DNA of 64,000 bases from Schmidtea nova (lineage: Eukaryota), in the NCBI GenBank assembly GCA_044892505.1, contig CM097882.1, positions 473,928,001 through 473,992,000 on the forward strand. Direction: 5' to 3'. Each line of letters opens with the position of its first letter. The stretch's first letter is position 1. The position numbers and the translations under genes were made by a program. The notes under the pieces are model-generated. The model was not told where the DNA came from. It made no database searches and worked only from the letters and a program-made list of their open reading frames with translations. Positions 18,318-62,321 of the stretch are shown piece by piece.

Positions 18318-19366
18318 TGTTCGGTTCGTATCAGTGGTTTACGACGAACACAGAAATATATATATATATATGTTTTGATTTGATTTGATTTGATTATCGG
18401 ACTCCAAACGATAATCCGCTTATATAATTATAAATAAAATATATGTTTTAGGTTGGGTGTAAAGAAAAGAAAACCAATTCTTTTTAATAAGATTTATGGC
18501 GATTTATGTATAACAATGTACAATATAATAAAATAAAATAGCTGCAAAGCAAAAGTTAGAAAATCGGTTATTCAAACCGTCCTCAGAGTTTAAGAACGAA
18601 AGCTGGACCTAAAAGGCTCAACAGCTCCGACTAAATGAAAGGACAAAAGATGAGGGCTTTCCCGGTAGTTTAATCGCGATAGTGACAACCCAGAAATGGT
18701 TGTCACTGTGACCTAATAATTTCCCTTCTAATAATTTATTATTTAACGAATTTACTGAAGGGGAAAAATAGTAATATAACTATTTCCCCGTGATCGATTT
18801 ATAGAATTAAAGCAAACTAGAAAATTTACCAGCTAATAAAGATTATTCCAATTTCGGGAAATTATCACAAATGAAATTCAAGCTAAACTTCTCGTAATAC
18901 TTCTGCCGTAAAAATTAATTTCTCCAATTCACAAATCTGTAAAACTTAGATTCTAAAATTCACTTCTGTAAAATTTATGTTCTGCCTCGACTGATTTGAC
19001 AATCAGTTTATATACAAATTATTTTCTCTCATGTAGGTCTAGACGACCACCTATTACTAACTACGTGTAGGTCGAAATTGACCTTACAAAATATTAACTT
19101 TTAAAGTAATTTATTATTACTATATATATCTTATTATTACTATTTAAATTTCTCATGTATTTATTTATTACTATATTTATTATATACTATTTAATTATTA
19201 CTATATTTATTATATGCTATTTAATTATTACTATATTTAATCTATATTTATTTATAGTAATTATTTATTTATTTTTAGTATTTTTTAATTGCTATTTCTA
19301 TTTATTTATTTACTTATAATATTTAATTACAAAAAACCCGAGATCCCTTGATCTCGAACCCTAACA
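18318..19366 (-). repeat. 3' LTR (1,049 bp)
   Basis: Matches 32195-33243 except at 18850/32727 and 19021/32898; minus-strand ends TGTTAGGG...CGAACA. Confidence 0.98.
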
Positions 19367-19368
19367 TG

Positions 19369-19378
19369 TCTTCCCCCT
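19369..19378 (-). promoter_or_regulatory. polypurine tract
   Basis: AGGGGGAAGA on the minus strand, 2 nt before the 3' LTR. Confidence 0.85.
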
Positions 19379-19680
19379 AACAAGATTTTCGTCCCGAAAA
19401 TTAAAGCGGAAAAAGACAAGAAGATGACGCAGCCAAAAATAAAAATAAAATAAAATAACAACACATGCATAAATATACATTGAATGCACTTGGTCAATAA
19501 AATAAAACAAAAATGAGTCTCATAAAACACACAATACATAAGTAATGTTAATCACAATCGATATCAAATAATAACTGTCTGTAAGCGTTAGATTGTTGAT
19601 CGCATAGCCGAAATGCTAATTGTTTGATTGATAGTTGTCATAGCTTATAGCTAGACCTTGGATTGAACGTAGCAGAAATG

Positions 19681-21837
19681 CTAGTTATCCTTTGCGAATA
19701 GGTTTTGAGCTGCTCTCTTGCGAATATGCGCTTGCTCGTTCTTGATGCGATCTTCCACTATATCTGGTCTATAACTGACCACCAATGTTTCGCGTGTTTC
19801 GACTTCCTTATATACCAAAGACGAAATCACGTATGATTTTCCGTTGGCCTCCAATACGCCATAGTAAGGGAAGTTTGAAACTGATGATTGGTGTACCGGT
19901 TTCCCGTCGTATTCTTTTATCCGAGGTACCCAATTTCTCTCTGGTCGCTGCCAAAAACTAGGGTCTTCATTGTCCAAATCCTGGGGTGTCTTTGCTGAAT
20001 TTCCCGTTCCAACGAAATCCCCTTCTCTTATAATAATAGGTTCGCCCTTAACCTCAGGAATCTGTTCCATATCGGGTGGAACGAATGCTGTTTCGATTAA
20101 ATCTTTGTCTTCCGTCGAGAGGAGATTTGGTACTTTCTTCTTGATCTTTAGATCTTGTAACCTTACAACAGGTTCTTGACTTTTCTTTGGGGGTGACTTT
20201 TCTACTGAAATCAATTTTTTAAAAGTCTTAGTAACTTTTTCCAAGAGCTTGTTCTCTTTCTTTGGTGGATTTTCTGGCACGATCTTTGTAATTGTACGGC
20301 TGTCTCCGTGTAAAGTTAAACGCATCTCTGTTTGCTCCTCACCCTCGCTTTCGCAGGTGGCGTAATCGTCTTCATCAGCTAAGGATATAGCTGGAGGGGA
20401 TAGTGATTCTTCCTCAACTATCTTTTGCAATTTGGTTGATAATGGTTGTTCCTGGGGTAAGCTCTCAATAGCTTTCCTTTTACTCGTTTCTTGTGGCTGT
20501 ATTGTATGAACCATTTTGACTTCTGATGTAATCGTCCCACTACGATTACCTGGGGTGATGTCATCTACCCAAACTTCTCTCAGTTTAAGGTAAATATTAC
20601 GTGTCGTTTCCACGTCATTTTCCGTTTTCAGATCTGAACGGTTTAGTTCTTCCTTTTCGAGAATTGACTTTGATAAATGCGCGAGTCGATAATGTCCGTT
20701 ACATTTCTTTAGTTCTCTCGCTTCCAGGCATTTTGCTGCTCCTAGTTCCCTAATGCCCAAAACTCGTTGAGGGTGTAACTGGACTGCTTCCAAGAAATCG
20801 TTGACTTGGAGACCTATTAGGATTTTCCCATCACATAATTTTCTAATACGGTCTGCGCAATCCTCTCCGTCAAATTGTCCGATGATTTCTTTTTCGGTCA
20901 TAGCATGCGGGTGCGATTGGTAATGTTTGACCTGGTTTCTGGGTGTAACCACCGTGTTTAGTATTAAATCACCACAGTAGTTTGCTATCAAAACAGCCAC
21001 CAAGGCTGGCTTTAAATAATCTCGCAAAGTTGCGTAATGCGCTGCAATAAATATTGACAATCTATCTTCTTGATTGGGGTGCAAATTCATCCGAACAAAG
21101 GATTTGAATGACTTGAGATCGTTCTCATTCACATTATAGGTCCAGGCAGGTTCATTTTTCCACAATGATTGCACTGCCTTGCTGGGTTCCAAAATCTCTA
21201 ATACCACAATAGTATTATATCCGTCACATTGGATGGAGATATTCTTTTCTCTGCCATCTCCGTTACTAATTTCTAGAGTTGATTCTGGTTGAAGTAGGAT
21301 AGGTCCTGTGGCTCCTGCCATGAAGATGGTAAAGGGTTTATTGATCGCGTGAATTAGGAGATGGTGAGTAAATGTTGATCTGTTAAATTCCGCCATGTGT
21401 TCAGTCAACCGGGTGTTCTCACGGCTGGTAATTGTGACTATGCACATTTGTCTCTTAGGCGATCCAAGAAACTTAAAATTGTTCGGGATGCCGGTGCAGT
21501 GCCCGTAATACCAATAGCGACGACCTTTCCGTGCTTCTGCGGATATCGCTTTTTCGATGTTTCGATAAATCAGTTTTTCCTTCTGTACTGTTTGCACATC
21601 GATAGTGCTATAACGCTGCTTGTATTGTGACACTTGATGCTTCATATCTGAAAGAAAAATAATTAACGTTAATATCAGATATACTGATATGCCAATATTG
21701 GCTAAAAAGAAATGCATAAATCTCGATTTACGGGATCTACTTATGCTGTAAGTTAATGCTACTCGGAGCTCAACAAGATTATAGATTTTAATATATATAT
21801 ATAAATACAAATATGCGATTTTATCTGTAATTGTCAT
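19681..21837 (-). CDS. ORF3 accessory protein (718 aa from ATG 21837, or 654 aa from ATG 21645): degenerate AlkB-like(?) region, degenerate DEDDh ISG20/REX4-like exonuclease, acidic/Lys-rich tail
   Basis: Intact long ORF inside the LTRs. PALVAVLIANYCGDLILNTVVTP...KLCDGKILIG...RLAHLSKSIL...TENDVETTRNIY aligns with REX4/ISG20 motifs. Confidence 0.75.
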   Translation of the reverse strand: MTITDKIAYLYLYIYIKIYNLVELRVALTYSISRSRKSRFMHFFLANIGISVYLILTLIIFLSDMKHQVSQYKQRYSTIDVQTVQKEKLIYRNIEKAISAEARKGRRYWYYGHCTGIPNNFKFLGSPKRQMCIVTITSRENTRLTEHMAEFNRSTFTHHLLIHAINKPFTIFMAGATGPILLQPESTLEISNGDGREKNISIQCDGYNTIVVLEILEPSKAVQSLWKNEPAWTYNVNENDLKSFKSFVRMNLHPNQEDRLSIFIAAHYATLRDYLKPALVAVLIANYCGDLILNTVVTPRNQVKHYQSHPHAMTEKEIIGQFDGEDCADRIRKLCDGKILIGLQVNDFLEAVQLHPQRVLGIRELGAAKCLEARELKKCNGHYRLAHLSKSILEKEELNRSDLKTENDVETTRNIYLKLREVWVDDITPGNRSGTITSEVKMVHTIQPQETSKRKAIESLPQEQPLSTKLQKIVEEESLSPPAISLADEDDYATCESEGEEQTEMRLTLHGDSRTITKIVPENPPKKENKLLEKVTKTFKKLISVEKSPPKKSQEPVVRLQDLKIKKKVPNLLSTEDKDLIETAFVPPDMEQIPEVKGEPIIIREGDFVGTGNSAKTPQDLDNEDPSFWQRPERNWVPRIKEYDGKPVHQSSVSNFPYYGVLEANGKSYVISSLVYKEVETRETLVVSYRPDIVEDRIKNEQAHIRKRAAQNLFAKDN

Positions 21838-22787
21838 AATCTCGTCATCATAATCCCATCAACCGACTCAATAGCCTGACTGAAGAATAATTTCATCCAA
21901 ACTCCCATTGCTATCAATGTAGTGATCATAGCTAATACTGCTGACGTAATAATCCATACCCCAACGGGTAATTTTCCCAAGTGAGTAATGGGGTTTACTT
22001 CATTAATTCCACACTGACAACTTTTAATATTGCTTTCTGTTGCTACTGTTGGTTTTACCATCTTCAATCCTTTCAATCTCTGCCATATGGCAGGATGAAT
22101 GACGTAACTCTCTTTCCGTATTAAGGATGTAACCGATTTCGTTGTCGTCGATGATTGAGGTAATTTCAAAGAGATTACTTCATAAAATACCTCATTCCAT
22201 TCATCGACTCCGAGCTTTTGTTTATTATTCATATAAGTGATATGAGCTTCCCACTCCACTGAACTGTTCCACTTGAGATTTTGTTTCTCAATATCTTCAT
22301 TTAGCCACAATTCTTGTACTATTTCCTTGTCGGAATGGATTTCTATCTTTACTCTATCCACTCCTTGTTTTGGTTGGCTGAAGGTAATCATACCTTGTTG
22401 GATATTTATCCTAACTTTCCTTTTGAAATCTGCTGTCTTCAGCTTCCATTGTGACTTTGAAAAATCTGACCATCGTCCAAACATAAAATGTTGTACAAGT
22501 ATATCTAATAAATATTCCTTTTCTGCTCGTAAGTCCTTTATGACTTTCACTCTTGTGTTTGAATCCAATGTAAAATGGAAACAACGTCGTTCACAAAACG
22601 AGAACTTGAATTTTGTATCATTTTCAGCTAATGATATTATCCTAAATTCCTGGAAAGATCTTCTGAATGCGAGATCTTGAATTTGTACCGCCGTTGGAAC
22701 AAATGTCTTTACACAGGATATAAGGCAACTTATTATTACCAAAAACGTAACTGATTTTGGCACGCCTCTTGATCGTAATGGATATCT
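21834..22787 (-). other. post-integrase type I membrane-protein module of unknown family
   Basis: RYPLRSR, then hydrophobic SVTFLVIISCLISCVKT (22704-22754), sequons NDT and NSS, and TM VGVWIITSAVLAMITTLIAMGVWMKLFF (21882-21965). Confidence 0.7.
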
Positions 22788-25700
22788 GTCTGAGACTGGT
22801 TCTGACCCTTTATCCTCTTTTTCCTTAATCGGATCTTTCTCCGTGACCGCAACTTTCTTGCATCTGTTAGCATGTACCATTATTGGTTCAGCTTTTCTAT
22901 TTGCTACTAATTGCAAGATTAAATTCGTGTCTGTGGTTCTCAAAACCTCATACGGTCCTTTGAAGTTTCTCATTAATTTTGGTGATAAGCCCTTTTTATT
23001 ATAATGGCTTTCCAACATCACCTTGTCTCCAACTAACATGCCATGTCCTTTGGCTTTCTTATCATGATAATCTTTCGATGCTTCCTGACTGAATTTTATA
23101 CTAAGACCTGCTTTTGTCCATGCTTCTTGCATTCTTTCTCTCATTTCCATGAGGTAATTTTCTTGGTCTAGATACTGTGTTGCTTTTGGGAAGAACAACA
23201 AATCTATAGGCATTTTACTTTGCCTTAAATACATGAGATAGAACGGCGTTTGTCCCGTACCCTCATGAACAGCATTTCTATATGCGAATAGGCATGATGG
23301 AATATGTATATCCCAATCCGTTTGCCCTGAATTTACGTATGATGCTAGCATATTTGCAAGCGTTCCGTTAAATCTCTCTACCAATCCGTCTGTTTGTGGA
23401 TGATACGGAGAGGTATTCAATTTTAAAATGTCGAAATAATCATTTATTCCTTTTAACAGATTACTCATGAAATCTGCTCCTCTATCTGTTAGTAGTTTTG
23501 TAGGTACTCCATACCTAAAAACGATTTGTTCTACAAAAATCCTGGCTATCGTATCTGCCTTGTGATTCGGTATCGGATAAGCCTCCGGCCATTTTGTCAG
23601 ATAATCGCAAAATACTAATATGTATTTGTTACCACTATTTGATTCTTTGAATGGCCCTAAAACATCCATTGCCGTCATTTCCATCGGTGTGGATGGTACT
23701 GGCATTGGTTTCATTGGCACATGCGGTTTCTTCCCCGTATTTCTCCTGGTGATACAGATCTTACATGACTGACACCATTCCTGTACGTCTGGTTTGATTG
23801 TCGGCCAGAAATATTTCTGCTTCAACCTTGACAATGTTTTCCTGAAAGACAAATGCCCTCCCAGTGCTCCATCATGATATTGTAACATCAAGGCTTCCCG
23901 ATATTTCTTAGGGACCATTATGACATTATCCCTTACATCCACATATTTGACTAATCCTTCTTCTAGGATAAATTTGTCTCGATTTTTCTCCCAATATTTA
24001 TTAAATTCCGTCGGTATGAACTTTGCTTCTAAAGCCTGTCTGATTTGGTTTATCTCTTCATCCGATTGTTGTGCTGCCATTAAATCCGCGAGTCTGTTTG
24101 CTTCTCTTGTAAGTGCGAAGATTGTTCCTTCTAATCTTCCTTCTTTGACATCTTCTGCTTCATCACCCTGGTCCATTCGAGAAAATGCATCTGCATTCCC
24201 ATTTTGATGTCCTTTTCGGTAATGTATTTCGATGTCGTACGGCTGCAAGATCAATGCCCATCTAACCAATTTTGATGTATCCATAGTATGCTTTGTTAAC
24301 CACTGTAATGGTCTATGATCCGTATACACAATGATCTTTCGACCCCATAAATATGTCCTGAATTGGTGTATAGCATACACAATTGCTAATGCTTCTAATT
24401 CGATAACTGCGTAATTCTTTTCGTGTGGTTTTAATCCTCTGCTAGCATACGCTATGGCATATTCGTCTCCTAGGTCATCTCTTTGACCTAACACAGCACC
24501 AATACCCCGAGTGCTGGCATCTGTCATGACCAAAAATTGTTTCTCAAAATCTGGAAACCGTAATATAGGAGGTTCCACGAGCATTCTCTTTAGCATAGCA
24601 AATGCTTCCTGTTGCTCTTTTCCCCAAACAAATTTGACATTTTTGCCCTCTAATTGTGTCAGAGGAAATGCTATTGCCGAAAAGTTCCTGATGAACTTCC
24701 TGTAATATCCCACTAAGCCCAAAAACCCTTTTATATGTTTGACTGTCTTTGGCTCTGGAAAATTCTTTGCTTTCTCAACATTTGCTGGATCTGGCTTTAC
24801 TCCATCCTTCGAGATAATGTGACCGACATAGACTACCTCTGATTCGGCCCATTTACATTTCGATGGTTTTACCTTAAGATTTGCATTAATTAACCTTTTG
24901 AATACGTCCTCTAAATGTTCTAAATGTTTTTCCAAATCTGGAGAAAATACTATGATATCATCTATGTATACCATTGCATGATGAACATCCATTAACATTA
25001 GATTCATGGCTCTTTGAAACGTTGCCGGCGCTCCTGTGAGACCAAATGGCATTACTGTATATTCGAAGTGTCCAAGGCTTGTAGAAAAAGCCGTAATTGG
25101 TATTGTCTCCTCTTTTAACTTGATTTGGTAAAATCCCTTCTGAGCATCCATCACTGAGAAATATTTTGAATTTCTCATGCGTCCGTAAATGTAATCCAAT
25201 AATGGTAATGGGTGACTATCCTTGCAAGTTGCTTCGTTTACCATTCGATAGTCGTTGCATAGTCGTACTGTTCCATCCTTTTTTGCCACTACTATCATTG
25301 GTGACTGGTATGGTGATTTACTATGCCTGATGATGTTATGTTTTAACATCAGTTTTACCTGCTTATCGACAGGTTCTTCCAAGCTAAACGGAATTCGATA
25401 CGGTCTCAGCTTTATTGGTTTAATATTGTTAAGAACAATTTCATGTTCCAACAAGTTCGTCTTTCCCAGATCATATTCGTGCTTGGCGAATACTTGATCA
25501 TATTTTCTTAACAACATGTTTACTTGAATATTCTCTCTTCGTGAAAGAGCTTTACTATTTGCCGTTGGCGCATCATAGTACTCGATGTCTGGTTCTCTAT
25601 TCTCTGCCTTCACTGTCAGGACAGATCCCCCAATCGGTAATTGATCCGACTTTGATACTCTCCCTACTCTTGTATCTGGGTACAATTTTAATGGTTTTAT

Positions 25701-25811
25701 ATCTAAATTGGCTACCCGAATTGGTATTCTGCCATTTTCAACTTTACCAACGCTATGCGTAATTGGTAGATTATATTTTGCTGAGAACCTTTCATCTGGT
25801 TCAAATACAAC
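21834..25811 (-). CDS. pol: Pol: RT - RNase H - integrase (HHCC, DDE, GPY/F) - signal peptide - ectodomain - TM; in frame with ORF1 after a TAA
   Basis: RT: DAQKGFYQI, PFGL, YIDD (24957-24968). RH: TDAS, ELEALA, TDHRPL. IN: HDGALGGH..CQSCKIC, MDVLGP, TDRGADF, VERFNGTL, FKGPY. The ORF track start at 25685 is a TTG within a frame that is open from 25811. Confidence 0.97.
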   Translation of the reverse strand, partial: VVFEPDERFSAKYNLPITHSVGKVENGRIPIRVANLDIKPLKLYPDTRVGRVSKSDQLPIGGSVLTVKAENREPDIEYYDAPTANSKALSRRENIQVNMLLRKYDQVFAKHEYDLGKTNLLEHEIVLNNIKPIKLRPYRIPFSLEEPVDKQVKLMLKHNIIRHSKSPYQSPMIVVAKKDGTVRLCNDYRMVNEATCKDSHPLPLLDYIYGRMRNSKYFSVMDAQKGFYQIKLKEETIPITAFSTSLGHFEYTVMPFGLTGAPATFQRAMNLMLMDVHHAMVYIDDIIVFSPDLEKHLEHLEDVFKRLINANLKVKPSKCKWAESEVVYVGHIISKDGVKPDPANVEKAKNFPEPKTVKHIKGFLGLVGYYRKFIRNFSAIAFPLTQLEGKNVKFVWGKEQQEAFAMLKRMLVEPPILRFPDFEKQFLVMTDASTRGIGAVLGQRDDLGDEYAIAYASRGLKPHEKNYAVIELEALAIVYAIHQFRTYLWGRKIIVYTDHRPLQWLTKHTMDTSKLVRWALILQPYDIEIHYRKGHQNGNADAFSRMDQGDEAEDVKEGRLEGTIFALTREANRLADLMAAQQSDEEINQIRQALEAKFIPTEFNKYWEKNRDKFILEEGLVKYVDVRDNVIMVPKKYREALMLQYHDGALGGHLSFRKTLSRLKQKYFWPTIKPDVQEWCQSCKICITRRNTGKKPHVPMKPMPVPSTPMEMTAMDVLGPFKESNSGNKYILVFCDYLTKWPEAYPIPNHKADTIARIFVEQIVFRYGVPTKLLTDRGADFMSNLLKGINDYFDILKLNTSPYHPQTDGLVERFNGTLANMLASYVNSGQTDWDIHIPSCLFAYRNAVHEGTGQTPFYLMYLRQSKMPIDLLFFPKATQYLDQENYLMEMRERMQEAWTKAGLSIKFSQEASKDYHDKKAKGHGMLVGDKVMLESHYNKKGLSPKLMRNFKGPYEVLRTTDTNLILQLVANRKAEPIMVHANRCKKVAVTEKDPIKEKEDKGSEPVSDRYPLRSRGVPKSVTFLVIISCLISCVKTFVPTAVQIQDLAFRRSFQEFRIISLAENDTKFKFSFCERRCFHFTLDSNTRVKVIKDLRAEKEYLLDILVQHFMFGRWSDFSKSQWKLKTADFKRKVRINIQQGMITFSQPKQGVDRVKIEIHSDKEIVQELWLNEDIEKQNLKWNSSVEWEAHITYMNNKQKLGVDEWNEVFYEVISLKLPQSSTTTKSVTSLIRKESYVIHPAIWQRLKGLKMVKPTVATESNIKSCQCGINEVNPITHLGKLPVGVWIITSAVLAMITTLIAMGVWMKLFFSQAIESVDGIMMTRL

Positions 25812-28800
25812 TTATCCTTCCCACTGTTTGCTAGTGGACACGAAACATACTGTTTCTGCTCTAGGTGGTATTATCATCGTATGGTCGATGAAAACTGTAT
25901 CATCATTATAAACTTTTCTTTTCTTACCGGTTGATCTAACTAACAATCCGGTAGCACAGTCAAATACGACTCCTTTTAATCTTCTTAAAAAATCCATTCC
26001 TAGTAGACATTCTACTGGACAAGTTCTCATGACTATAATATCATGACGAAATTCTTGGTCACATAGCTTGATGTTACAAGCTAGAGTACCGATAATATTC
26101 AATGATGTGCCTGTAGCACCTGTTAGCGAAACTCTAGAGGTTTCCATTGATTCCAATTCTTTTTGATTTAATAGCGTTGCCTCTATGATAGTGCCGTCTG
26201 CTCCTGAATCTATCACTGCATTAACTGTGTGTCTGTTTATTTTTATCTTTATCATGGGTTTCTTCTCCAAGTTCACCCCATTTGCCATCAAAATAGTAGC
26301 ATGCGTTATCCCGATGGTATTTGCTCTGAATTTCTCAGCCTCATCTTGTTCGGTATCACTCAATTTTGGATTATATTCCTTGAATTTAGCTTTTATTGCT
26401 TCTAACGACTCGATAGGATACAGTTTCCCTTCATTTTCTAACGATAATGATATGCTTTTACCTGTTTCTCGAGCATCTTTGTCGGGAATTTGTTGATGTT
26501 TAGAAATGTACATTTTGTTTCTTGGTATGGTTAAAGCATAACTTGGCTTGCCTTCTCCTGATGTCTTTTGAAACTCTGGCGATTCCCCTTTTGGCGCTGT
26601 TGGTAAGCTTCTAAGATACGGCAATTGCATATATCTTGGGCTTCTTTTCAATCTAGGCGATGTTGTATTGATTGCAAATTTCTGGTCTGCACTATCGTAT
26701 TCATCTTCTGAAATCATACTTTTGTCGAAAATCTGTTTTGTCGCTTCGTAAGGTGGTTGATAATCCCGATATTTCATTTTCCTTAATTGATGATTCGGTT
26801 TTTTATTGTAGTTTCTTTTTCGACTTCTACTTTGCCTCTGAACTGTATTAAGAGAGTCTCCATTACCTCCTCCTTCAGAATTGTTATCGTCCCGATAACT
26901 TGTATTACCCTCCATTTCGATTCCAATAATCTCGTGTTTTACCAAGCTTCTCTGTTTGATTGTCTTTATTTCTTTACGATGATGTTTAAACAATGCAAAT
27001 TCCGCACACATAGGACACAATCCTAGTATCAACTTCCAAGACCATCCACCGATTTTGAATATACTGTATGTGGAAATTAATTGTGTTATTATTAACTTTA
27101 GAATTACGAATATTGCATATATTCCTGAGCAGCCTGCCACGAAAATACCAAAATTGGTAAACCTTCCCCATATTTTCATCATCACATTTTTAGCTGCTTC
27201 TTTATAATGATCTGGACCAAATAATAAATTGTAATCTGGTCTCATTTCGCTTGCTTGGTAAATTGTTCTTATGATTTCAGTGATACCTCTTTCTCTTACT
27301 TGAGGAAATAGCAACGTCTGTCTTGCCTCCTCAATGTCTGCTGGAGTGTAAATTCCTCCTTGTGATAATTCATCGAGTGATTTAAATTCCATGTTTTCCT
27401 CGAGTTTCGTGACTTCCAATGTTTCCACCTTTCTATTAGATGGTTTTCTGTCCGGTAATGAGATCCATCTATCATTTACCTTGTATAACGGTGATATTGC
27501 TGGATTGCAAATTGAAGGTTGAGGCTTTTGTTTTTCATCCAAAAGTCTCCTCGTTACTGGCATTACAAATCGTATCTTGTTTTGATATGACACTGGTAAT
27601 TCTAGAGTACATTCGTTATACCGTGTTAATTGTACCTCTATGGGTTGACATTGATAGCTGTATATAGCTTCCCCCATAATTCTGCCAAACATTCCATCTT
27701 CTAGCAACATAGGTGTCACTAGATCCGGATTCACGATTGATATCGCTAATCGATTTCGAACTATTTCGCGATTTAGTTTGCAATCATTGAGTATTACTTC
27801 CTGATACATTTCCTGCATTTGTCCTTGCAGATCATGATATAAATAATCTATTTTATTATTTATATAGTTCGTGATTTTGATATCCTGGCTGTGAATATTC
27901 TTGGCTTTTTGGATAAATGTTTTTGACAAATATAATCCTTTATAGTTGGTCTCGTACACCACTTTTCCGCATTTTGTCTTCTTATCTTTTCTGACAAATC
28001 TGATTGCATCTTTCTTATCTTCTGATACTAATACTAGAGGTGTGATTTCCTCACTAATATCCTCTTTTTGCTGTTTGTTGATCCTTTTCAACGTCTTTTC
28101 TTTATCCCAAATTCTTTCTCTTTTGGGTAAATCTCGATACTTTGTCCCGTTCAACTTATGGAAATTAATTTTCTTTAGTAATGACAATTCGCAATGGTCT
28201 AGTATTTGATCGTATAATAATGTAATGACCCCTGTTCTGCAGCTTCCAAATTTCGCGAGGCACTGAGGGTGTGCCATTAATCTTCCTGATAATACATCGA
28301 ACGTCCCTTCGTATTCTCTTAATTCGATTGAATAGTCCTCGATATCTACGACAAAACTTACCAACTCCGATCCGCGAGTTTTCTTTCTTCCCGTACAGGT
28401 ACCATCTGATCCAATTGATCCTCCTCTTGTAATGGTTACTCCCAGTGTTTTCCCTACTTCCGCGGCGATGGTTACCTCGTTATCGATTCTTAAAGTACCT
28501 TTTCGAAAGGCATCTAGACAATCTTCTGGCAATATGTTAACTGGTCTAGGTATTAGAGTGGCTGATAGAAAAGCTGTATAGCTGTGTGAACCACAATAAT
28601 ATTCAAACGTTGCTCTTTGGACTCTACATTCTCTTATCTTAGTTCTGAAGAATTCACTTTCTTGGTAAACATAGTATTCGACCTTTTCTCCTGTTTGGAC
28701 TTTCTCTGGGTATGCCTCTTTGCACTCAATTGCATCCACGAGCGAATATATCCGAGCCAACTTTGGATCACTGCAATCAAACGCTGTCATTGTGTTTGTC

Positions 28801-31800
28801 TGTTTCATTATCCCCATCATTACTAAAAACATTAATATCATATTTGTCATATTCCCCATTCCTCCATTTCCGAGGTGGTTGTTATTCATAGCCTCTTCCA
28901 CAAATTCATATCGTGGTTTATGTTTCTCCTCTTCCCAGAAGTTATTTTCACTCATCCACGTTCCGAGATAATGCTCCGTTATCTCCGTGATCTGGTCTAT
29001 TTCTCGATTAATAAGTTTCTTCTCATTGCCTGCGCGGGCTAAGGCATCTTGAATCAACATAGATAATGCTGTCACTATTTTTCCTTTAGATAACCCATCT
29101 TGTATGAGTGTCTCTAACATACTCTGTATCTCGTTTTGAGGTACCCCTTTAGGTAATCTCCTCATCGTCTTCGCGATTGACTGTGTCACTTTATCCACTT
29201 GAATTCCTTTAATCCGAGTGATCTGCCATTCCGGCTTTAATATTCCTATGATCTGTTTGATTCTCTTCCATGTCAGAGATTTTTCTGGTATATGTACACC
29301 CTCGTCTCTCATATCAACATCCCTGGCTATTCCTGACAGGGTTTTCATCTGAACCTGTTTAATGGTTTCTTGGTTTAATTGCTCCGTGGGTGGAGGTTTC
29401 ATTTGATCTTTCCTAGGCCTTCCTCGCCTATCTTTCTTTGTCTGCCATGCTGGCCTGACAGTTTCTACCGCCTGAGAAGTTGAAGCACCCACGTTAGTTT
29501 CCTCATTATTGCGCCTGATTTCCTCTTCTCCGTGATTATCGGCATCGATATCTACATTAAGTGGTTGTGTCTCAACGTTACCAATGACCATTTCATCTGG
29601 TAATCGTAATGCTGACCATTGAGATTCAGGTGGCTCTACGGGAATGATTGCTACCGTTGTAGTTTCAAATGGTAGACATCCCACATCTACTAAATATTCA
29701 TCATCATCCACTTGCCCTCCATGAATCATAATCAAGAATATACCAGTAGTCTGCCCAGTATCTATTAAATCCTTTCTCAACGTTATCACTTTGCTAAAAC
29801 AACGATATAACCTCGTCATGGGTTCTTTTCCCGATATTCGAATGTCTAAAGTTATCATGCCTTGTCGGTGTGCTTGATGACGTATTGCTGTTCCATTTTT
29901 TCTCATTAACATTTTTATTTCTGTTTGAAAAGAACTAGTTTCTTTTACTACAGGTAGTAATATAGGAATTATACTCTCCAATGATTCTACTGGTATGCGC
30001 AATACCAACATCCAGTCTAATATTTCCTTGATTGTTTCTCCATCCCTCGGAGATTTCTGCAACTCTATCTTCAGACGTTGCTCTATTTGTTGAACTTCCT
30101 CCAACTGTGCGATTTCCATCTGTGTGAGTAGAAACACACTGTCTTGATCCACTACTGGGACCGATATTCCTGTCAGTTTCGTTGTGAGTTTCGTTACCTT
30201 TCCTGGTAATACACCATTTTGTAGTAGTGTTTCTCCAACTACTAACTTTTCTCCATATAAGTAAAAATCATATCTATTATGTTTCAATTTCATCATTGTA
30301 TCTGACAACTTGTCTGTTCGACATCTTACATTCATGTCGATGTTAAACTCCTGCTCCTGAGGAAGTTTTATGTTTAAATGCGAATCCTGAAGATCCCATT
30401 CATGTTCCATTGCTGTTCCTATCTTTCGTAGGATTTTGTGTATGTCGTTATGATACCTTGGATCATCTTCGACCTGAGATATTAACTGTAATATCTTTCC
30501 AATTTCACTATTCTTGATCTCACCTTGTGATAATTTCTCTAATTCTCTAGTCAGTCTCTGCTGATACTCATATCTGGAATCCACCAGTTTTAAACATTTT
30601 GCTAGGGTATCTGACCCTTTCTTGGCCTTTGTTTCCTTGAACAAAGCCTGGTCGAACTCGCTCAGTATGGTACTCATACTGGGTTCGTCATCATTATCAG
30701 AATTTGTTTCTGATTCTATTACCTCCTGATTCTCGCTGCTGGAATCCATGGGTTCACTATTACCTTGCTCATCTGTGTAAGCATCATGATTTTTCTCAGC
30801 TGAAATCATCAAAACTGTTCCTTGCCCAACTGTGTGAGCATCATCGCTTTCCTCAATGGGATTCATTATAACTGTTCCTCGCCCATCCATGTGAGCATGA
30901 TTTTTCTCAGCTGAAATCATAAAAACTGTCTCTTGCCCAACTGTGTGAGTCTCATTTATTTCTTCAATTGTATTCATCAAAACTGTTCCTCGCTCATCTG
31001 TGTGAGCATGATTTTTCTCAGCTGAAATCATAAAAACTGTATCATCTCGATCCATTAGCCGTGCTAATCGATTTTTCTCCTCCTGGATTTCCATTTCCAG
31101 TTGTTGCAAATACGTCAATTCTTTATCGTGATTGACCATGAACGTAGTTTTTGGCTTGCTGATATTACCACCATTGGTAGTCCTATTATTCGTATTATTA
31201 CTCTGATTTTGAGGACACGACCTCAGTATATGCCCGAATTTTCCACATCCGTGACATTTTATCTTTCCTGATGAATTAACATCATCCCTTTTAATATTAA
31301 AATTCCCATTCGTGGGGAGATTCTTAACTCTACAAACGGAAGCCACATGCCCTCTGCGTTTGCATTTATCACACTGCAAGTTCGTGACTCTACAGTTCTC
31401 AACACTATGATTATTCATACCACATTTGGTACACTGAATACCCCTACGAGTATCAGCTACCTTCTTACTGTGGCAATCTTTTGATATGTGCCCTTTCTTA
31501 TGGCAGTTAAAACATTCAATGGCTGGCTTCTCATTATTTACCATAAATGATGTAGCCTTTTCTAAGCTGCTTTCGATTACGACAGCTTTTCTTGTTAATT
31601 CCCAAAAATCATCTCCCGTGTGGAGAATCAATGCATTTCTCATTACATTTGTGAATCCAGCTAATAATTGGTCTTTAACCATAGCTTTAGTTGCATCATT
31701 CCAGGTAGTTCTGAGCCCAAATGCTCTTTCTGCTAATAACAATAATTGATAGGAAAATTCTCCTACATGCTCATTGGCATTCTGTTTTCTATGGTAAAAC

Positions 31801-32102
31801 TGTTGTCGGAAAATTCTACTTGAATCTCCCGGTAATATTCTAGCTGTTAGTGATTCTCTCATCTTTTCCCATGTAGCTGGTTTATCTGCTGCTGGTAACG
31901 CCATAATATCATTGTAGTTTTCCCTTGCCATACCCTTAAGGTAAATTGGCAGTCTTTGTATCATTATTGCATCTGGATACCCATAGGCCTTTGCCATCTG
32001 ATAATACTCTGACATAAACTCCGGAAATTCCCCTGGATCTCCGCTAAATGCCTTGACAGGTAAAGCGGGATATCTAGCAAAAACATTATTCTCTTCAGCC
32101 AT
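25812..32102 (-). CDS. gag: Gag-Env-Pro polyprotein (2,096 aa from ATG 32102)
   Basis: Uninterrupted frame: capsid (FSGDPGEF..YLKGMA..TWEKMRESL..RKQNANEHVGEF), 4 CCHC knuckles, accessory region, glycoprotein, and protease DSG...LLGMDFL. Confidence 0.95.
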   Translation of the reverse strand: MAEENNVFARYPALPVKAFSGDPGEFPEFMSEYYQMAKAYGYPDAIMIQRLPIYLKGMARENYNDIMALPAADKPATWEKMRESLTARILPGDSSRIFRQQFYHRKQNANEHVGEFSYQLLLLAERAFGLRTTWNDATKAMVKDQLLAGFTNVMRNALILHTGDDFWELTRKAVVIESSLEKATSFMVNNEKPAIECFNCHKKGHISKDCHSKKVADTRRGIQCTKCGMNNHSVENCRVTNLQCDKCKRRGHVASVCRVKNLPTNGNFNIKRDDVNSSGKIKCHGCGKFGHILRSCPQNQSNNTNNRTTNGGNISKPKTTFMVNHDKELTYLQQLEMEIQEEKNRLARLMDRDDTVFMISAEKNHAHTDERGTVLMNTIEEINETHTVGQETVFMISAEKNHAHMDGRGTVIMNPIEESDDAHTVGQGTVLMISAEKNHDAYTDEQGNSEPMDSSSENQEVIESETNSDNDDEPSMSTILSEFDQALFKETKAKKGSDTLAKCLKLVDSRYEYQQRLTRELEKLSQGEIKNSEIGKILQLISQVEDDPRYHNDIHKILRKIGTAMEHEWDLQDSHLNIKLPQEQEFNIDMNVRCRTDKLSDTMMKLKHNRYDFYLYGEKLVVGETLLQNGVLPGKVTKLTTKLTGISVPVVDQDSVFLLTQMEIAQLEEVQQIEQRLKIELQKSPRDGETIKEILDWMLVLRIPVESLESIIPILLPVVKETSSFQTEIKMLMRKNGTAIRHQAHRQGMITLDIRISGKEPMTRLYRCFSKVITLRKDLIDTGQTTGIFLIMIHGGQVDDDEYLVDVGCLPFETTTVAIIPVEPPESQWSALRLPDEMVIGNVETQPLNVDIDADNHGEEEIRRNNEETNVGASTSQAVETVRPAWQTKKDRRGRPRKDQMKPPPTEQLNQETIKQVQMKTLSGIARDVDMRDEGVHIPEKSLTWKRIKQIIGILKPEWQITRIKGIQVDKVTQSIAKTMRRLPKGVPQNEIQSMLETLIQDGLSKGKIVTALSMLIQDALARAGNEKKLINREIDQITEITEHYLGTWMSENNFWEEEKHKPRYEFVEEAMNNNHLGNGGMGNMTNMILMFLVMMGIMKQTNTMTAFDCSDPKLARIYSLVDAIECKEAYPEKVQTGEKVEYYVYQESEFFRTKIRECRVQRATFEYYCGSHSYTAFLSATLIPRPVNILPEDCLDAFRKGTLRIDNEVTIAAEVGKTLGVTITRGGSIGSDGTCTGRKKTRGSELVSFVVDIEDYSIELREYEGTFDVLSGRLMAHPQCLAKFGSCRTGVITLLYDQILDHCELSLLKKINFHKLNGTKYRDLPKRERIWDKEKTLKRINKQQKEDISEEITPLVLVSEDKKDAIRFVRKDKKTKCGKVVYETNYKGLYLSKTFIQKAKNIHSQDIKITNYINNKIDYLYHDLQGQMQEMYQEVILNDCKLNREIVRNRLAISIVNPDLVTPMLLEDGMFGRIMGEAIYSYQCQPIEVQLTRYNECTLELPVSYQNKIRFVMPVTRRLLDEKQKPQPSICNPAISPLYKVNDRWISLPDRKPSNRKVETLEVTKLEENMEFKSLDELSQGGIYTPADIEEARQTLLFPQVRERGITEIIRTIYQASEMRPDYNLLFGPDHYKEAAKNVMMKIWGRFTNFGIFVAGCSGIYAIFVILKLIITQLISTYSIFKIGGWSWKLILGLCPMCAEFALFKHHRKEIKTIKQRSLVKHEIIGIEMEGNTSYRDDNNSEGGGNGDSLNTVQRQSRSRKRNYNKKPNHQLRKMKYRDYQPPYEATKQIFDKSMISEDEYDSADQKFAINTTSPRLKRSPRYMQLPYLRSLPTAPKGESPEFQKTSGEGKPSYALTIPRNKMYISKHQQIPDKDARETGKSISLSLENEGKLYPIESLEAIKAKFKEYNPKLSDTEQDEAEKFRANTIGITHATILMANGVNLEKKPMIKIKINRHTVNAVIDSGADGTIIEATLLNQKELESMETSRVSLTGATGTSLNIIGTLACNIKLCDQEFRHDIIVMRTCPVECLLGMDFLRRLKGVVFDCATGLLVRSTGKKRKVYNDDTVFIDHTMIIPPRAETVCFVSTSKQWEG
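25956..26260 (-). other. retropepsin aspartic protease domain
   Basis: AVIDSGADGTII (catalytic D at 26208-26210), flap TGATGTSL, CLLGMDFL. Confidence 0.95.
26988..28850 (-). other. env: envelope glycoprotein domain, chuvirus/Jingchuvirales G-like (class III-like fusogen), embedded in ORF1
   Basis: Signal-like MILMFLVMMGIM, then AFDC, YYCGSHS, GSIGSDGTCTG, CKLNREI, GEAIYSYQCQP, CTLELPV, GGIYTPADIE, LLFP; TM FGIFVAGCSGIYAIFVILKLII (27087-27153). Confidence 0.85.
29640..30563 (-). other. duplicated helical + ubiquitin-like module
   Basis: QRL..EL.K...(D/E)I..(I/L).RK.GTA occurs twice, each followed by a 72-73 aa segment matching the ubiquitin-fold pattern. Confidence 0.6.
30762..31040 (-). repeat. 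in-frame 111-bp (37-aa) tandem repeat x2.5 built from 18/19-aa subunits
   Basis: TVFMISAEKNHAH...TV(L/I)MN(T/P)IEE...HTVGQ repeated. Confidence 0.9.
31215..31514 (-). other. four CX2CX4HX4C zinc knuckles (nucleocapsid)
   Basis: CFNCHKKGHISKDC, CTKCGMNNHSVENC, CDKCKRRGHVASVC, CHGCGKFGHILRSC. Confidence 0.95.
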
Positions 32103-32173
32103 GTCCTCCACAACTTTTAACTTTTTAGGAGCTATTTTGTATATATGACAATATGCCCACTGATAATAATTGT

Positions 32174-32191
32174 ATCACGTCGGGCTCACCA
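32174..32191 (-). promoter_or_regulatory. primer-binding site, tRNA-Trp type
   Basis: TGGTGAGCCCGACGTGAT, 3 nt after the 5' LTR. Its complement ATCACGTCGGGCTCACCA differs at one base from the animal tRNA-Trp 3' end as I recall it (ATCACGTCGGGGTCACCA). Confidence 0.85.
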
Positions 32192-32194
32192 AAA

Positions 32195-33243
32195 TGTTCG
32201 GTTCGTATCAGTGGTTTACGACGAACACAGAAATATATATATATATATGTTTTGATTTGATTTGATTTGATTATCGGACTCCAAACGATAATCCGCTTAT
32301 ATAATTATAAATAAAATATATGTTTTAGGTTGGGTGTAAAGAAAAGAAAACCAATTCTTTTTAATAAGATTTATGGCGATTTATGTATAACAATGTACAA
32401 TATAATAAAATAAAATAGCTGCAAAGCAAAAGTTAGAAAATCGGTTATTCAAACCGTCCTCAGAGTTTAAGAACGAAAGCTGGACCTAAAAGGCTCAACA
32501 GCTCCGACTAAATGAAAGGACAAAAGATGAGGGCTTTCCCGGTAGTTTAATCGCGATAGTGACAACCCAGAAATGGTTGTCACTGTGACCTAATAATTTC
32601 CCTTCTAATAATTTATTATTTAACGAATTTACTGAAGGGGAAAAATAGTAATATAACTATTTCCCCGTGATCGATTTATAGAATTAAAGCAAACTAGAAA
32701 ATTTACCAGCTAATAAAGATTATTCCTATTTCGGGAAATTATCACAAATGAAATTCAAGCTAAACTTCTCGTAATACTTCTGCCGTAAAAATTAATTTCT
32801 CCAATTCACAAATCTGTAAAACTTAGATTCTAAAATTCACTTCTGTAAAATTTATGTTCTGCCTCGACTGATTTGACAATCAGTTTATATACAAATTCTT
32901 TTCTCTCATGTAGGTCTAGACGACCACCTATTACTAACTACGTGTAGGTCGAAATTGACCTTACAAAATATTAACTTTTAAAGTAATTTATTATTACTAT
33001 ATATATCTTATTATTACTATTTAAATTTCTCATGTATTTATTTATTACTATATTTATTATATACTATTTAATTATTACTATATTTATTATATGCTATTTA
33101 ATTATTACTATATTTAATCTATATTTATTTATAGTAATTATTTATTTATTTTTAGTATTTTTTAATTGCTATTTCTATTTATTTATTTACTTATAATATT
33201 TAATTACAAAAAACCCGAGATCCCTTGATCTCGAACCCTAACA
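32195..33243 (-). repeat. 5' LTR (1,049 bp)
   Basis: Direct repeat of 18318-19366, adjacent to the PBS. Confidence 0.98.
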
Positions 33244-42017: not shown

Positions 42018-43290
42018 CGTGGTGCGGTCAAAGAGTTTCCGGCCTACCCCAGAAAAAAGTAAAAGCAAGAAACCACAACTATATTTTTATAAACACCAAT
42101 ACCATTACTTCTCGAACCAATTACCTCCGGCATCGACACACATCTGCCAACGACCAGGGAGGGCTTCGAATGCCCCATGGTAAAATGAGTGTGGTAGCTG
42201 GTCAAAAATCCGATTTACAGCCTCCTCTAAATCGCCTGCATCCATGAAATACTGTCCCCTCAGTTGCTTCTTCAATTCCGTAAATAGGCAGTAATCTGAG
42301 GGAGCCAAATCAGGGCTGTATGGAAAGTGGCTAATGATCTCGAAGCCACAGTCATTGAGTTTTGCTTGGGCAATGCGGCTGGTGTGAACTAGCGCATTGT
42401 CATGTTAAAACCAGTGAGGGAGGCCATATGGTTTTCGCCACTTTCTACGAGCTTGCTCAACGAGATTACCGCAATATTGTCCGCTGATTGTCCGTCCCTT
42501 CTCAAGAAAGTCGGTGAGGATCACTCCCTTATGACTCCAAAACACAGTCAACATAAGTTCCCGTCTGTGCGACATTCCGGAACGAGACTTCCAAACTTTT
42601 CCTTCTTCCGGCTTTCTCCATTCCATAGACTCCCGCTTTGATTCAGGCTGATGTAGGGGCAACTGTGTCTCATCAACAGTGAGGATGTTTTGGATAAATC
42701 TTTCTCCATACTTGCGGTAAATGGCGAGGTTCATGAGACACGCATTCTTTCGGTTATTGTACATCTCAGTTGTCAAAAAGCGAGACACAAAGCGAGACAC
42801 CACCTTGTTAAAGTTAAGGTCTTTCAATAATTGCACTACGTACCGTGTGATATTTGTAGGGATTCTTCCAGCTGCCTGGGAGTTATACGGCGATCTTCCA
42901 GTACCATTTTCTCCAATTTTTCCTTCACATCTTCATTTCTCGAAGTCGTTGGTCGACCCTCTCGTTCCTCATCTGACACACTTTGTGGACCCCGTTTGAA
43001 TTCAGCAATCCAAAACTTGATGGTAGACTGAGAGGGACACTTTTCGCCATAGGCTCGATTCAGATTTGCCATGATTTCAACACAAAAGCGAATAGCACTG
43101 CGATACTCAATTTTTTCCAGCGAATGCACTTGCAACGACATTTCCATCTGCAACAGATAAAGTAAATGGATTAGGTCAATAAGATTTTCAACATGAAATT
43201 GTCAATAAATTTCCAATAAAATAAACCTATTTCCATTAAAAAATCAATTTGTTAAGTAGGGTAGGCCGGAAACCTTTTGACCGCACCACG
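42018..43290 (-). mobile_element. full-length (1,273 bp) defective mariner (DD34D)
   Basis: 32-bp TIRs CGTGGTGCGGTCAAA(GA/AG)GTTTCCGGCCTACCC (30/32) with TA on both sides. Transposase from ATG 43147 to stop 42105 with TVDET, HDNAR and YSPDLAPSDY; at least two frameshifts (about 42836 and 42405). Confidence 0.95.
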
Positions 43291-57059: not shown

Positions 57060-59830
57060 AGACACTCACAGAATATTTACCACATGTCAGAACTAGTGAT
57101 ATTCCTATAAAACTGATATGCCTATAAAACTGTGTGATATTCCAACTTTTGAACGTAAATATCCTGGTTTGGTAATCAATGTGTTAACTTATAATGATAA
57201 TCAGTTATCAGATATGAATAATGTTGTAATGAAACAACCACATTTGAATATAATTCATCGATCAAAAGTCATAGACGGCAAGCAGATTTACTTATTAATG
57301 TTAGAAAATACAGATCAATTTCATTATACTGCAGTAATCAACATCGATCGTTTGATGAATTGTCATAAAAGCACAAACTGTAGTGTTCAGATTTGTTGCA
57401 AGTAGTGTATAAATGGCTTGAATGGATACAGAAAGAAAAAAAGTTTTTCAAAAGCATCAAGCACTGTGCAAGAAAAATCAATCGGAATCAACTTTATATA
57501 CTATGTCAACAGATAAAAACTTGGAATTAAAAAACTGGTCAAAGATTATAACACCCTAATTTGTTATTTATGTAGATTTTGAGTAGATTTTATTCAAAGA
57601 TGACACTTATTTTTAAAGAAATTTACCAATTCCAGCCGGACTCTTATTAATCAACAATTTTAATTGAATATCAATTTATTATCAATTTTTAGGTGATGAT
57701 TTTGTTTATTAATTTTTTAAGAAAGTAAAAATTATAGCAACAAAAATTGCTTGTCCATATTACATCAAAAAAGGTAGAAATTGAATGTCACCACTTTCTC
57801 TAGATGAAAAGCAATAATTTGAAAATTCAAAAATTTGCTACTTGTGCAAGAAACAGATAATAGAAAAGGTCAGAGATCACGATCATTTAACAAGAAAATT
57901 ATTCGGGTTCCATATGTAATAAATGTAATATGTCAAGAAAAATCAATGAAATTTTGTCCGTTGCGTTTAATAATTTGAGGGGTTATAATTTACACCATAT
58001 CCTTAAGCATAGGTTAAATCGTTTTCCGGATTGGAATTTAATCTGTATTCATCTTAAAACTGAAAAATTTCTATCATTTATTGCATACATTGGTGGAATT
58101 TCAATAAAATTTATTGACTCTTATCAGTTTGTCAATGAATCTTTAGCTAAAGCCATCAAAACATTGAACCACTTACCCATTACAAAATCAGAATTTAATG
58201 GAATTATAGTAGAATCAAAAGGAATATTTCAATATAACTTTGCCACTAGTCAAGAAGTTATGGAAACAACAACACAATTACCCCCAATCTGGGATAGTGT
58301 TTCAAAAAAAGAATATGAAAAGGCCCAACATATATAAGAAGAAACATACTGTGAAATATTGATGGATTATCAGTTAATTTATTTGAAACTTAACGTGTTT
58401 CTATTGGCTGATTTCTTCCAACAATTTTAAGCCAATTCCATAGCTCATAATCGATTGAAACAATTAAACTTTTATGGAATTCTTGGAATGTATTCGGCAT
58501 CATCACTTATGACTTTAGATGAAACAATTTAACTGATACAAGAAATGGAAATGTTTAACTTTTATGAAGGCGGAACCCGTGGTGGTCTTTCATTTGTGAA
58601 CAAGCATTATGTTAAATCAGATGCAAATACAAAGTTATTGTACATATATATTAATAACCTTTATGGATCCGCTTTAAGTAAAGCTTGCCGTGGAGACTTT
58701 AGTTGGATTTATTCAGATTTAGATAAAATCTAAGAAGAATGCAAGAATTTAGAATTAGAAACGCTTCCGAATGGCTATACAGTAGAAGTTTATTTAGAGA
58801 TCTTTTCAGAAATTCATGATTTATTGGATGATCTACATGTAGCATCTTAAAAGATGTGTGCTCTAGGATCTAAAGTAGAAAAGTTAATGCTGACACACTA
58901 TCCGAAGTAAAAAATTATGTAATTCATTGGCGGTTTCTTCAAATGTAATATCAATATACATAGAGCTGTTAAATTTAAACAGGCTGCTATTTTCAAGAAG
59001 TATATTGATACAAATACTAAGCTAAGAGCTGAGTCGAATAATAGTCTCGATAAAAATTATTATAAGCTTTTGAATTATAGTCTGTACGGAAAAACAGTCA
59101 AAAATTTGAAGAAAAGAATGAATTTGAGACAATATAATACTGACCAGAAAAAGGTAACATATGCTTCTAAGCCAACTTTTCAAAGAAGTATAAAGATTGA
59201 TGATGATTCAATAGTTGTCTTAGTAAATAAAGACTATATTTGTTTGTTTAGACCCAGCTATATAGGTCAATCGATTTTGGATTTATCGAAACTTCGGATG
59301 TATCATATACAATATCTGGAGTCAGCTAAATATCGAGCACAATTTGGTTGCGAAAAAAATATTATACTGGGGATACCTATAGTTTTTTTGCAATGTAAAA
59401 TGTAAAATTAGATACATTATTACTGGCAATGGTTAATGACAATCTCTTGGATACGTCTAATTATCCTTCAGAACATCCAATCTTTTCCAGGAAATTAGAT
59501 GTAGCTATCGGAAAATTCAAGGATGAAAGTAAAGGCGATGCATATAAAGAATAGATCTTTTTCAAACCAAAATGTTACAGTTGTTCAGTGGAAAAGAGAC
59601 CTTAAAAGCTAAAAGAAAAACATTGAAGGGTACTGACATCAAACATCAGTCGTATCTAGATTGTTATAATAACACAGAAGGTTTATAGCATCACAATGTC
59701 GAATTGGTACACAAAATAATAAATAATTAAGTTTCCAGCAGTCGCAAGTTGCTTTAACAAATAAAAAAATAAAATAAATTGGATTGAAAAGTATAAAAAT
59801 CACACATATGGACACTACGGCGATGAGAAA
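57060..59830 (+). pseudogene. fragmented protein-primed family B DNA polymerase (Polinton/Maverick-type) with endonuclease-VII-like motif
   Basis: FERKYPGLVINV, HYTAVI, KVRDHDHLT, FNNLRGYNLH, FIDSYQF, KGIFQY, EGGTRGGLS, YINNLYGSA, NYSLYGKT, PSYIGQSILDLSKLRMY, GKFKDESKG, HTYGHY; many stops and frameshifts. Confidence 0.85.
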
Positions 59831-62118: not shown

Positions 62119-62262
62119 TGAGTCATCGCAGAACAAAGGAAATGACGTCATCGATGAGTCATCCATGACCCCCTCCCCCCGCCCGATGACTCACTTTTTT
62201 CTTTGTTATGACTCATCAATGACTCATCACATGACTCATCGCATGACTCATCGCATGACTCA
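62119..62262. promoter_or_regulatory. cluster of 8 AP-1/GCN4-type TGA(C/G)TCA sites plus one CRE (TGACGTCA)
   Basis: Heptamers at 62119, 62155, 62187, 62209, 62220, 62232, 62244 and 62256; CRE at 62143. Confidence 0.6.
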
Positions 62263-62321
62263 TTTCAAATTTTAAATTTAAATTGCCAAAGGTCAAATAA
62301 GGTCAAACCTTCAAACAAGGG

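Follow-up and report, generated by a model that had tools for sequence, protein, structure and literature searches.

In a retroelement of Schmidtea nova, a first-pass annotation made from the sequence alone had described two homologous units inside Gag, each with a helical segment followed by a ubiquitin-like (UBL) segment, and had read them as non-conjugatable decoys or adaptors. This raises the question of whether the two units are a true repeat, what they fold into, where else they occur, and what such a module could do for a retroelement. The window analysed here is a stretch of 64,000 nt (contig CM097882.1 of assembly GCA_044892505.1, positions 473,928,001 to 473,992,000), and positions refer to it throughout.

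Layout of the element and place of the module

The LTR element spans 18318-33243 (14,926 bp) on the minus strand. The module lies in a single open frame of 2,120 codons (25812-32174, minus strand; Table 1), within which the peptides and positions quoted in the first-pass annotation were recovered. The insertion is considered young because its LTRs differ at just two positions and the pair is flanked by a 4-bp target duplication, GCTA. The primer-binding site is presumably tRNA-Trp-like. Within the Gag core, Pfam matches were obtained to zf-CCHC (E 1.4e-4) and Retrotrans_gag (E 0.14), and the PF24664 match covers residues 1375-1739 of the Gag frame, placing a gB-type Env between Gag and protease. 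An in-frame stop parts the protease from RT in the window copy; one frame of 3,446-3,453 codons is listed for 22 of the 107 scored family-A rows, and the usual form of the family is therefore taken to be a single Gag-Env-Pol polyprotein. The module comes after four zinc knuckles and the protease-site-like motifs and therefore lies downstream of the Gag core, not within it as had been supposed.

Table 1. Features of the LTR element, with positions in the window.
Feature	Position	Strand	Basis or remark
5' LTR	32195..33243	-	1,049 bp, TG...CA; 2 mismatches to the 3' LTR
3' LTR	18318..19366	-	1,049 bp
Primer-binding site	32174..32191	-	sequence adjoining the 5' LTR
Gag core: capsid and four CCHC-type zinc knuckles	31140..32102	-	Pfam matches, knuckle positions
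57/111-nt tandem repeats (D4/D5)	30728..31040	-	protease-site-like motif TVF/MIS three times
Unit 1, four-helix bundle	30411..30611	-	AlphaFold helices 2-11, 17-29, 34-47, 51-67; block pLDDT 78-96
Unit 1, ubiquitin-like beta-grasp domain (UBL1)	30171..30389	-	
Linker beta-hairpin	30114..30170	-	model strands 148-154 and 160-166; alignment
Unit 2, four-helix bundle	29877..30113	-	helices 167-185, 191-203, 208-222, 229-245
Unit 2, ubiquitin-like beta-grasp domain (UBL2)	29631..29864	-	conserved acidic loop
Linker motifs GASTS and RGRP (AT-hook-like)	29415..29489	-	3/15 frames scanned
Bcl-2-like domain	28917..29336	-	Pfam and PDB profile matches
Hydrophobic signal/anchor segment ahead of Env	28791..28853	-	sequence, hydropathy
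Class III (gB/chuvirus-type) envelope glycoprotein with membrane anchor	26955..28790	-	PF24664, E 2.5e-90
PTAP and YPx3L late-domain-like motifs	26403..26603	-	cytosolic tail between Env and protease
Aspartic protease	25971..26267	-	PF13975, E 2e-12
RT, RNase H, integrase and C-terminal membrane-protein-like extension	21834..25811	-	Pfam
Separate ORF, ISG20L2-like DEDDh exonuclease fold	19681..21858	-	PDB 7yw5, E 3.9e-4

The Bcl-2-like domain is located ~110 residues after UBL2; neither this domain nor the Gag-Env-Pol layout had been noticed in the first-pass annotation. Pfam Bcl-2 was matched in seven of nine aligned members (best E 2.1e-4, with every score shown falling short of the curated threshold), and the best 60 matches of the PDB profile search all belong to the Bcl-2 family (best E 7.5e-4). 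With modest scores and a degenerate BH1 signature, the domain resembles the Bcl-2 family at the level of the BH1/BH2 profile. The hydropathy peak ahead of Env is present in 10/12 frames, falling under the threshold in the window copy and in L030. In the tail between Env and protease, YPx3L was found in all 12 frames scanned (window, L030, L056, L057, L060, L063, L065, L068, L069, L071, L077 and L092), PTAP in eight and PPxY in two.

Several other features of the locus were recorded. In the otherwise variable linker after UBL2, GASTS and RGRP are kept in families A-C (3/15 frames); GASTS may fit a USP7/SPOP MATH-binding pattern, and a literature search found no USP7-binding precedent for this motif. 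At the place of the tandem repeats, another peptide repeat is found in family C. Past the integrase, the Pol frame (21837-22790) continues into a signal-like segment, ~250 residues without a Pfam match and a C-terminal membrane segment, and this membrane-protein-like stretch may represent a second membrane protein within the polyprotein. By eye, the exonuclease ORF appears to lack its first acidic motif and catalytic His, and its product is possibly an inactive RNA-binding decoy. Elsewhere in the window (42405-43201, 57891-59405, 62212-63550), mariner-type transposase remnants, frame fragments resembling protein-primed DNA polymerases and a tandem repeat array were seen by eye.

Repeat and predicted fold of the two units

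From the window copy alone, the duplication is marginal: unit 1 against unit 2 scored 55, a value reached by 1 of 2000 shuffles and equalled by the best of 111 control windows taken from the element, and UBL1 against UBL2 was not significant (405/2000 shuffles). With relatives included, sequence comparison makes a firm case. HHalign related the two units at 99.1% probability (E 4.7e-19) with 45 rows and at 98.3% with the 23 genome rows only, where none of 202 block shuffles reached the score of either the whole units or helix 1 against helix 2; with families A-C alone the probability was 10%. In the divergent families, each of the two unit profiles matches both units. The repeat claimed in the first-pass annotation is thus borne out by the wider alignment, the window copy and families A-C contributing little by themselves.

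Searches of PDB and Pfam with the module of the window copy as a single sequence returned nothing useful, and a single-sequence AlphaFold model was unusable (pLDDT 35.9). In the alignment-based model, the two homologous units stand in tandem, each consisting of a predicted bundle of four helices and, behind it, a ubiquitin fold without a di-glycine end; the pTM of 0.68 over both units suggests that bundle and UBL pack together. The helical part described earlier is present in the model, with the first bundle starting at 30611, ~16 residues before the boundary originally drawn. The hairpin between the units is found by alignment in families A-C and P0005 and is lacking in D-H. A BAG-domain reading of the helices was dropped, the helices being short and the order being helix then UBL. 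For the module, the ESM Atlas leads to the ubiquitin family stayed under 0.9, and its lead from helix 2 to a sigma-70 non-essential region (0.96, low recognition) was discarded as noise.

Both UBLs are predicted to adopt the beta-grasp fold, as anticipated in the first-pass annotation, with close fold matches to ubiquitin, ISG15 and the UBLs of Dsk2 and Rad23. The best 60 of 290 PDB profile matches are ubiquitin or UBL-bearing chains (best E 3.8e-6), and Pfam ubiquitin was matched in 11 of 45 aligned members (best E 4.3e-7), the window copy having no such match. The ungapped alignments proposed earlier were reproduced against host ubiquitin, with 8/34 identities for segment 1 (ubiquitin 43-76) and 6/31 for segment 2; identity to the host protein in a MAFFT alignment is 9/76 residues for each UBL. 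Gly-Gly in register with ubiquitin 75-76 occurs in 0/67 UBL rows (seven have a GG somewhere among their final 18 residues, always out of register), and the absence of this di-glycine is the reason for considering the UBLs non-conjugatable, in agreement with the earlier proposal.

Integral (type II) UBLs such as TINCR, the OASL tandem UBL, Rad23/Dsk2 and the Rad60 SLD share 6-19% identity with those of the element, which differ from them in being fused behind a four-helix bundle and in having the 51-63 loop as their conserved face. The acidic loop of UBL2, at ubiquitin positions 51-58, reads DDDEYLVDVGCLP in the window copy; D302, E305 and Y306 are present in 24/24 unit-2 rows and D303 and D304 in 23/24, and G60 and P63 are also kept. 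Basic residues are kept on the last helix of the bundle and as a cluster on the UBL helix, those conserved in unit 2 being at positions 238 and 244 (0.92) and 274 and 279 (0.96 and 0.88). These acidic and basic faces may pair inside the unit, or they may form a site for a partner.

Relatives of the module and likeness to Burro

In genome G000, at least 107 copies of family A were scored (of 122 matches) and at least 90 of a second family (of 123 matches), and there are further families at ~20-45% identity, one of them with dozens of scored copies. With alignment A1 as the query, 1.84 billion representatives yielded 26 proteins at E up to 0.001, comprising 24 module relatives and 2 poly-ubiquitin-like proteins. 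The word-index protein search gave eight matches with alignment A2, none with the polyprotein region and none among proteins of 539-2000 aa. No RNA record was listed for the region either, a result without bearing on its expression. All nine G000 families placed on the tree have two units, and a single unit behind Gag is found in P0009, P0013, P0016 and P0027. All unit 1s fall on one side of the tree (support 89/82). A topology that unites units 1 and 2 in families A-C (p-AU 0.126), or one that does so in D-H (p-AU 0.173), was not rejected on a tree that left out P0005, P0007, P0015, P0018, P0035 and the Burro1-like row, all of which were taken into another analysis; the trees are compatible with separate duplications in these two sets of families. 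Purifying selection acts on the module, with a pN/pS of 0.10 among 24 family-A copies compared with the window copy and whole-module dN/dS values of 0.13-0.39 in 11/12 pairs (dS was saturated in the twelfth); single sub-domains reach dN/dS 0.95-0.96 in two pairs.

The first-pass annotation knew of no retrotransposon with such modules, a statement that does not hold. In planarian Burro polyproteins, a Ubi2/SUMO-like domain (PF11976) lies between the MATH and BCL-2 domains, and env precedes the protease in the same frame (PMC6431247). Burro/GYPSM1, the giant Ty3/gypsy element of Arkhipova and Yushenova (2019, PMC6431247), shares with the window element a CCHC Gag, a UBL, a BCL2-like domain and a mononegavirus-like env, then the protease, and the Burro succession of UBL, BCL2-like domain and in-frame env ahead of the protease is found here in full. 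Burro exceeds 30 kb, whereas the window element measures 14.9 kb, and the Burro cargo of MATH/TRAF, BIR, ankyrin and dUTPase gave no Pfam match (E up to 1) in the three frames of the window element. The element works like a compact Burro, without the size and cargo features. Section 7 of PMC6431247 names a UBL motif only, with no helical partner or duplication, whereas the window element has two units.

A homologous unit was also found in Burro1-like elements. A BIR search of G000 gave 1,295 candidates, of which 150 were scored and three 50-kb neighbourhoods were read (loci L111-L125, on C1 near 548.26, 163.56 and 400.13 Mb). All three contain Burro1-like elements with one helix+UBL unit before the protease (25-32 bits), and the unit of one copy matched the unit-2 profile at 37.8 bits (0/1000 shuffles) and PF11976 at E 0.008. 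The ORFs of these elements encode Gag-unit-protease-ankyrin, TRAF, BIR-RING and coiled-coil proteins; no RT, env or Bcl-2 was matched within 50 kb at the three loci, and they are possibly a non-autonomous form present in many copies. The Burro1 BIR-RING protein is reported to protect stem cells from apoptosis, as cited in a passage of PMC13465017.

Paired LTRs, a target duplication and the order PR-RT-RH-IN identify the element as a member of the Ty3/gypsy GAG-ENV-POL errantivirus group. Flatworm errantiviruses with HSV/gB-type Env are catalogued in PMC13524379, and among its entries consulted the closest is Smed_errantivirus_4, which agrees with the window element in gene order, Env type and size (its span is listed as ~14.9 kb); by eye, 34 of the first 50 Env residues match those in its supplement. 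The words "ubiquitin", "Bcl" and "TFIIS" do not occur in its main text, nor does "ubiquitin" in seven text supplements, and in these parts of the source the region between Gag and Env is undescribed. A UBL in this position is known from Burro (PMC6431247); no published description of the helix+UBL unit or its doubling was located, and Lee et al. 2026, Grohme 2018 and Repbase may cover it.

In an abundant, unrelated BEL/Pao family of the same genome, Gag is preceded by a fragment of Hsp70 and a near-canonical ubiquitin (two frames scanned, L132:2839-7956:+ and L133:3729-9998:+; 2,602 candidates in the ubiquitin search, 150 scored). This shows an independent capture, and that ubiquitin folds have been taken up repeatedly by LTR elements.

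Possible roles of the module

The explanation we tentatively favor, while giving it as a whole somewhat less than an even chance, is that the non-conjugatable module is carried on an anchored accessory protein and binds a host factor. The two units would be the protein-docking head of this accessory protein, which the protease of the element would cut free from Gag ahead of the module, with no cut between module and Env. A protease-site pattern, made by hand from the capsid/nucleocapsid border after viewing the sequence, matches five times before the module in the window copy and nowhere inside the module or between it and Env, which makes module - linker - Bcl-2-like domain - membrane anchor the likely predicted product. 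This protein would stay membrane-anchored via the Bcl-2-like domain and the Env signal segment, and its rigid helix+UBL unit would bind through the acidic loop and basic helices rather than through the I44 patch. A candidate partner would be a host ubiquitin-system or cell-survival protein, and the carrying cell might thereby be helped to survive while the element replicates. The neighbors of the unit are host-manipulating domains, Bcl-2-like here and TRAF, BIR-RING and ankyrin in the Burro1-like elements. However, the hand-made pattern works better in some families than in others: B1 and B2 lack a match upstream of the module, and C, D, E, G and H show scattered ones within or behind it. The conserved acidic and basic residues might merely contact one another within the unit, and the two high sub-domain dN/dS values also speak against a docking head. 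The unit, moreover, follows the nucleocapsid whatever comes next, be it a Bcl-2-like domain as here or the protease in Burro1-like copies.

This last point would suit just as well a Gag-linked role in assembly, a close rival that we regard as doubtful but worth weighing, in which the units would be a matrix- or spacer-like tether from the nucleocapsid/RNP to the membrane-anchored Env segment and would bind the element's own proteins or RNA. Coronavirus nsp3 Ubl1, which binds nucleocapsid, offers an analogy. The unit directly follows the zinc knuckles and a conserved coiled helix in 9/9 G000 families, and likewise in P0009, P0013, P0016, P0027 and the Burro1-like elements; the basic cluster is kept on the UBL helix, and in a Gag-Env fusion the segment would lie topologically between capsid and membrane. 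Yet protease-site-like motifs part the unit from the nucleocapsid in the window copy, most Ty3/gypsy elements assemble without such a unit, and single-unit elements exist, which argues that a second copy is not needed for assembly. Retroviral late domains occupy this same place right behind the nucleocapsid, and pestiviruses, whose ubiquitin inserts serve as a cut site for host ubiquitin hydrolases, have polyproteins among the viral fold matches. That the UBLs are such a cut site or a late-domain substitute is nevertheless highly improbable given the missing di-glycine, and the ordinary PTAP and YPx3L motifs of the Env tail mean that the UBLs are not needed as budding signals.

The earlier proposal of decoys engaging proteasome receptors or deubiquitinases through the usual ubiquitin surfaces draws on the close beta-grasp match and on some kept residues, namely G47 (18/29 UBL1 and 31/37 UBL2 rows) and Met at position 44 of UBL2 (M in 15 of 37 rows, T in 6, I in 4, R in 4). 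The window UBL2 has this Met, and weak binding via its ubiquitin-type patch is conceivable. The L8/I44/V70 hydrophobic patch of ubiquitin mimics is otherwise poorly kept: L8 is present in 3/29 UBL1 rows, position 44 of UBL1 is K, Y or R in 21/29, V70 is not among the common residues and the R72/R74/G75/G76 tail is absent from the alignment. With the low identity to ubiquitin and a conserved face that lies elsewhere, we consider such decoys improbable. A possible likeness of the helical part to TFIIS N-terminal domains, a family that we take to include TFIIS, MED26, Elongin A, IWS1 and the LEDGF IBD, would instead point to a nuclear adaptor binding elongation-factor peptides or integrase with the help of RGRP, which we judge unlikely. 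The small bundle of the module has four short helices of similar size, HHalign matched 50 of its columns to host TFIIS-N domains in a register that is plausible and with a similar hydrophobic rhythm, and RGRP is found behind the module in families A-C as well as in outside relatives. But the HHalign probability was 1-3%, with a 5-residue gap and a score reached by 8/100 block shuffles; host TFIIS-N domains scored at most 6.7 bits on the helix profile, which 9/135 decoys reach; RGRP is missing from families D-H; and the predicted product is membrane-anchored. TFIIS-N was absent from the PDB, Pfam and fold lists for the helix, an absence that does not count against the likeness, the fold lists being filled by UBLs. 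The more specific version, in which a captured TFIIS-N/LEDGF-IBD-type domain is joined to a ubiquitin fold as a chromatin adaptor, tethering the integrase encoded by the element or sequestering peptides of elongation factors, is less likely still; if true, the element would bring its own LEDGF, kept and doubled across a flatworm endogenous-virus clade. The host genome itself contains TFIIS-N-domain gene arrays (G000:C1 216.19-216.25 Mb, L108-L110; C2 283.99-284.27 Mb; C1 28.8 Mb, L099-L103), with ~28 copies at ~1.2-kb spacing that by eye resemble Elongin A, together with clustered IWS1-like paralogues.

What was a one-line domain note for Burro has become a defined, foldable composite domain under purifying selection, situated in a clade of abundant, young, enveloped retroelements. 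Such elements are reported to influence planarian stem-cell survival, and the partner of the module would therefore be a testable handle on how endogenous viruses of invertebrates may tune apoptosis or the ubiquitin system.
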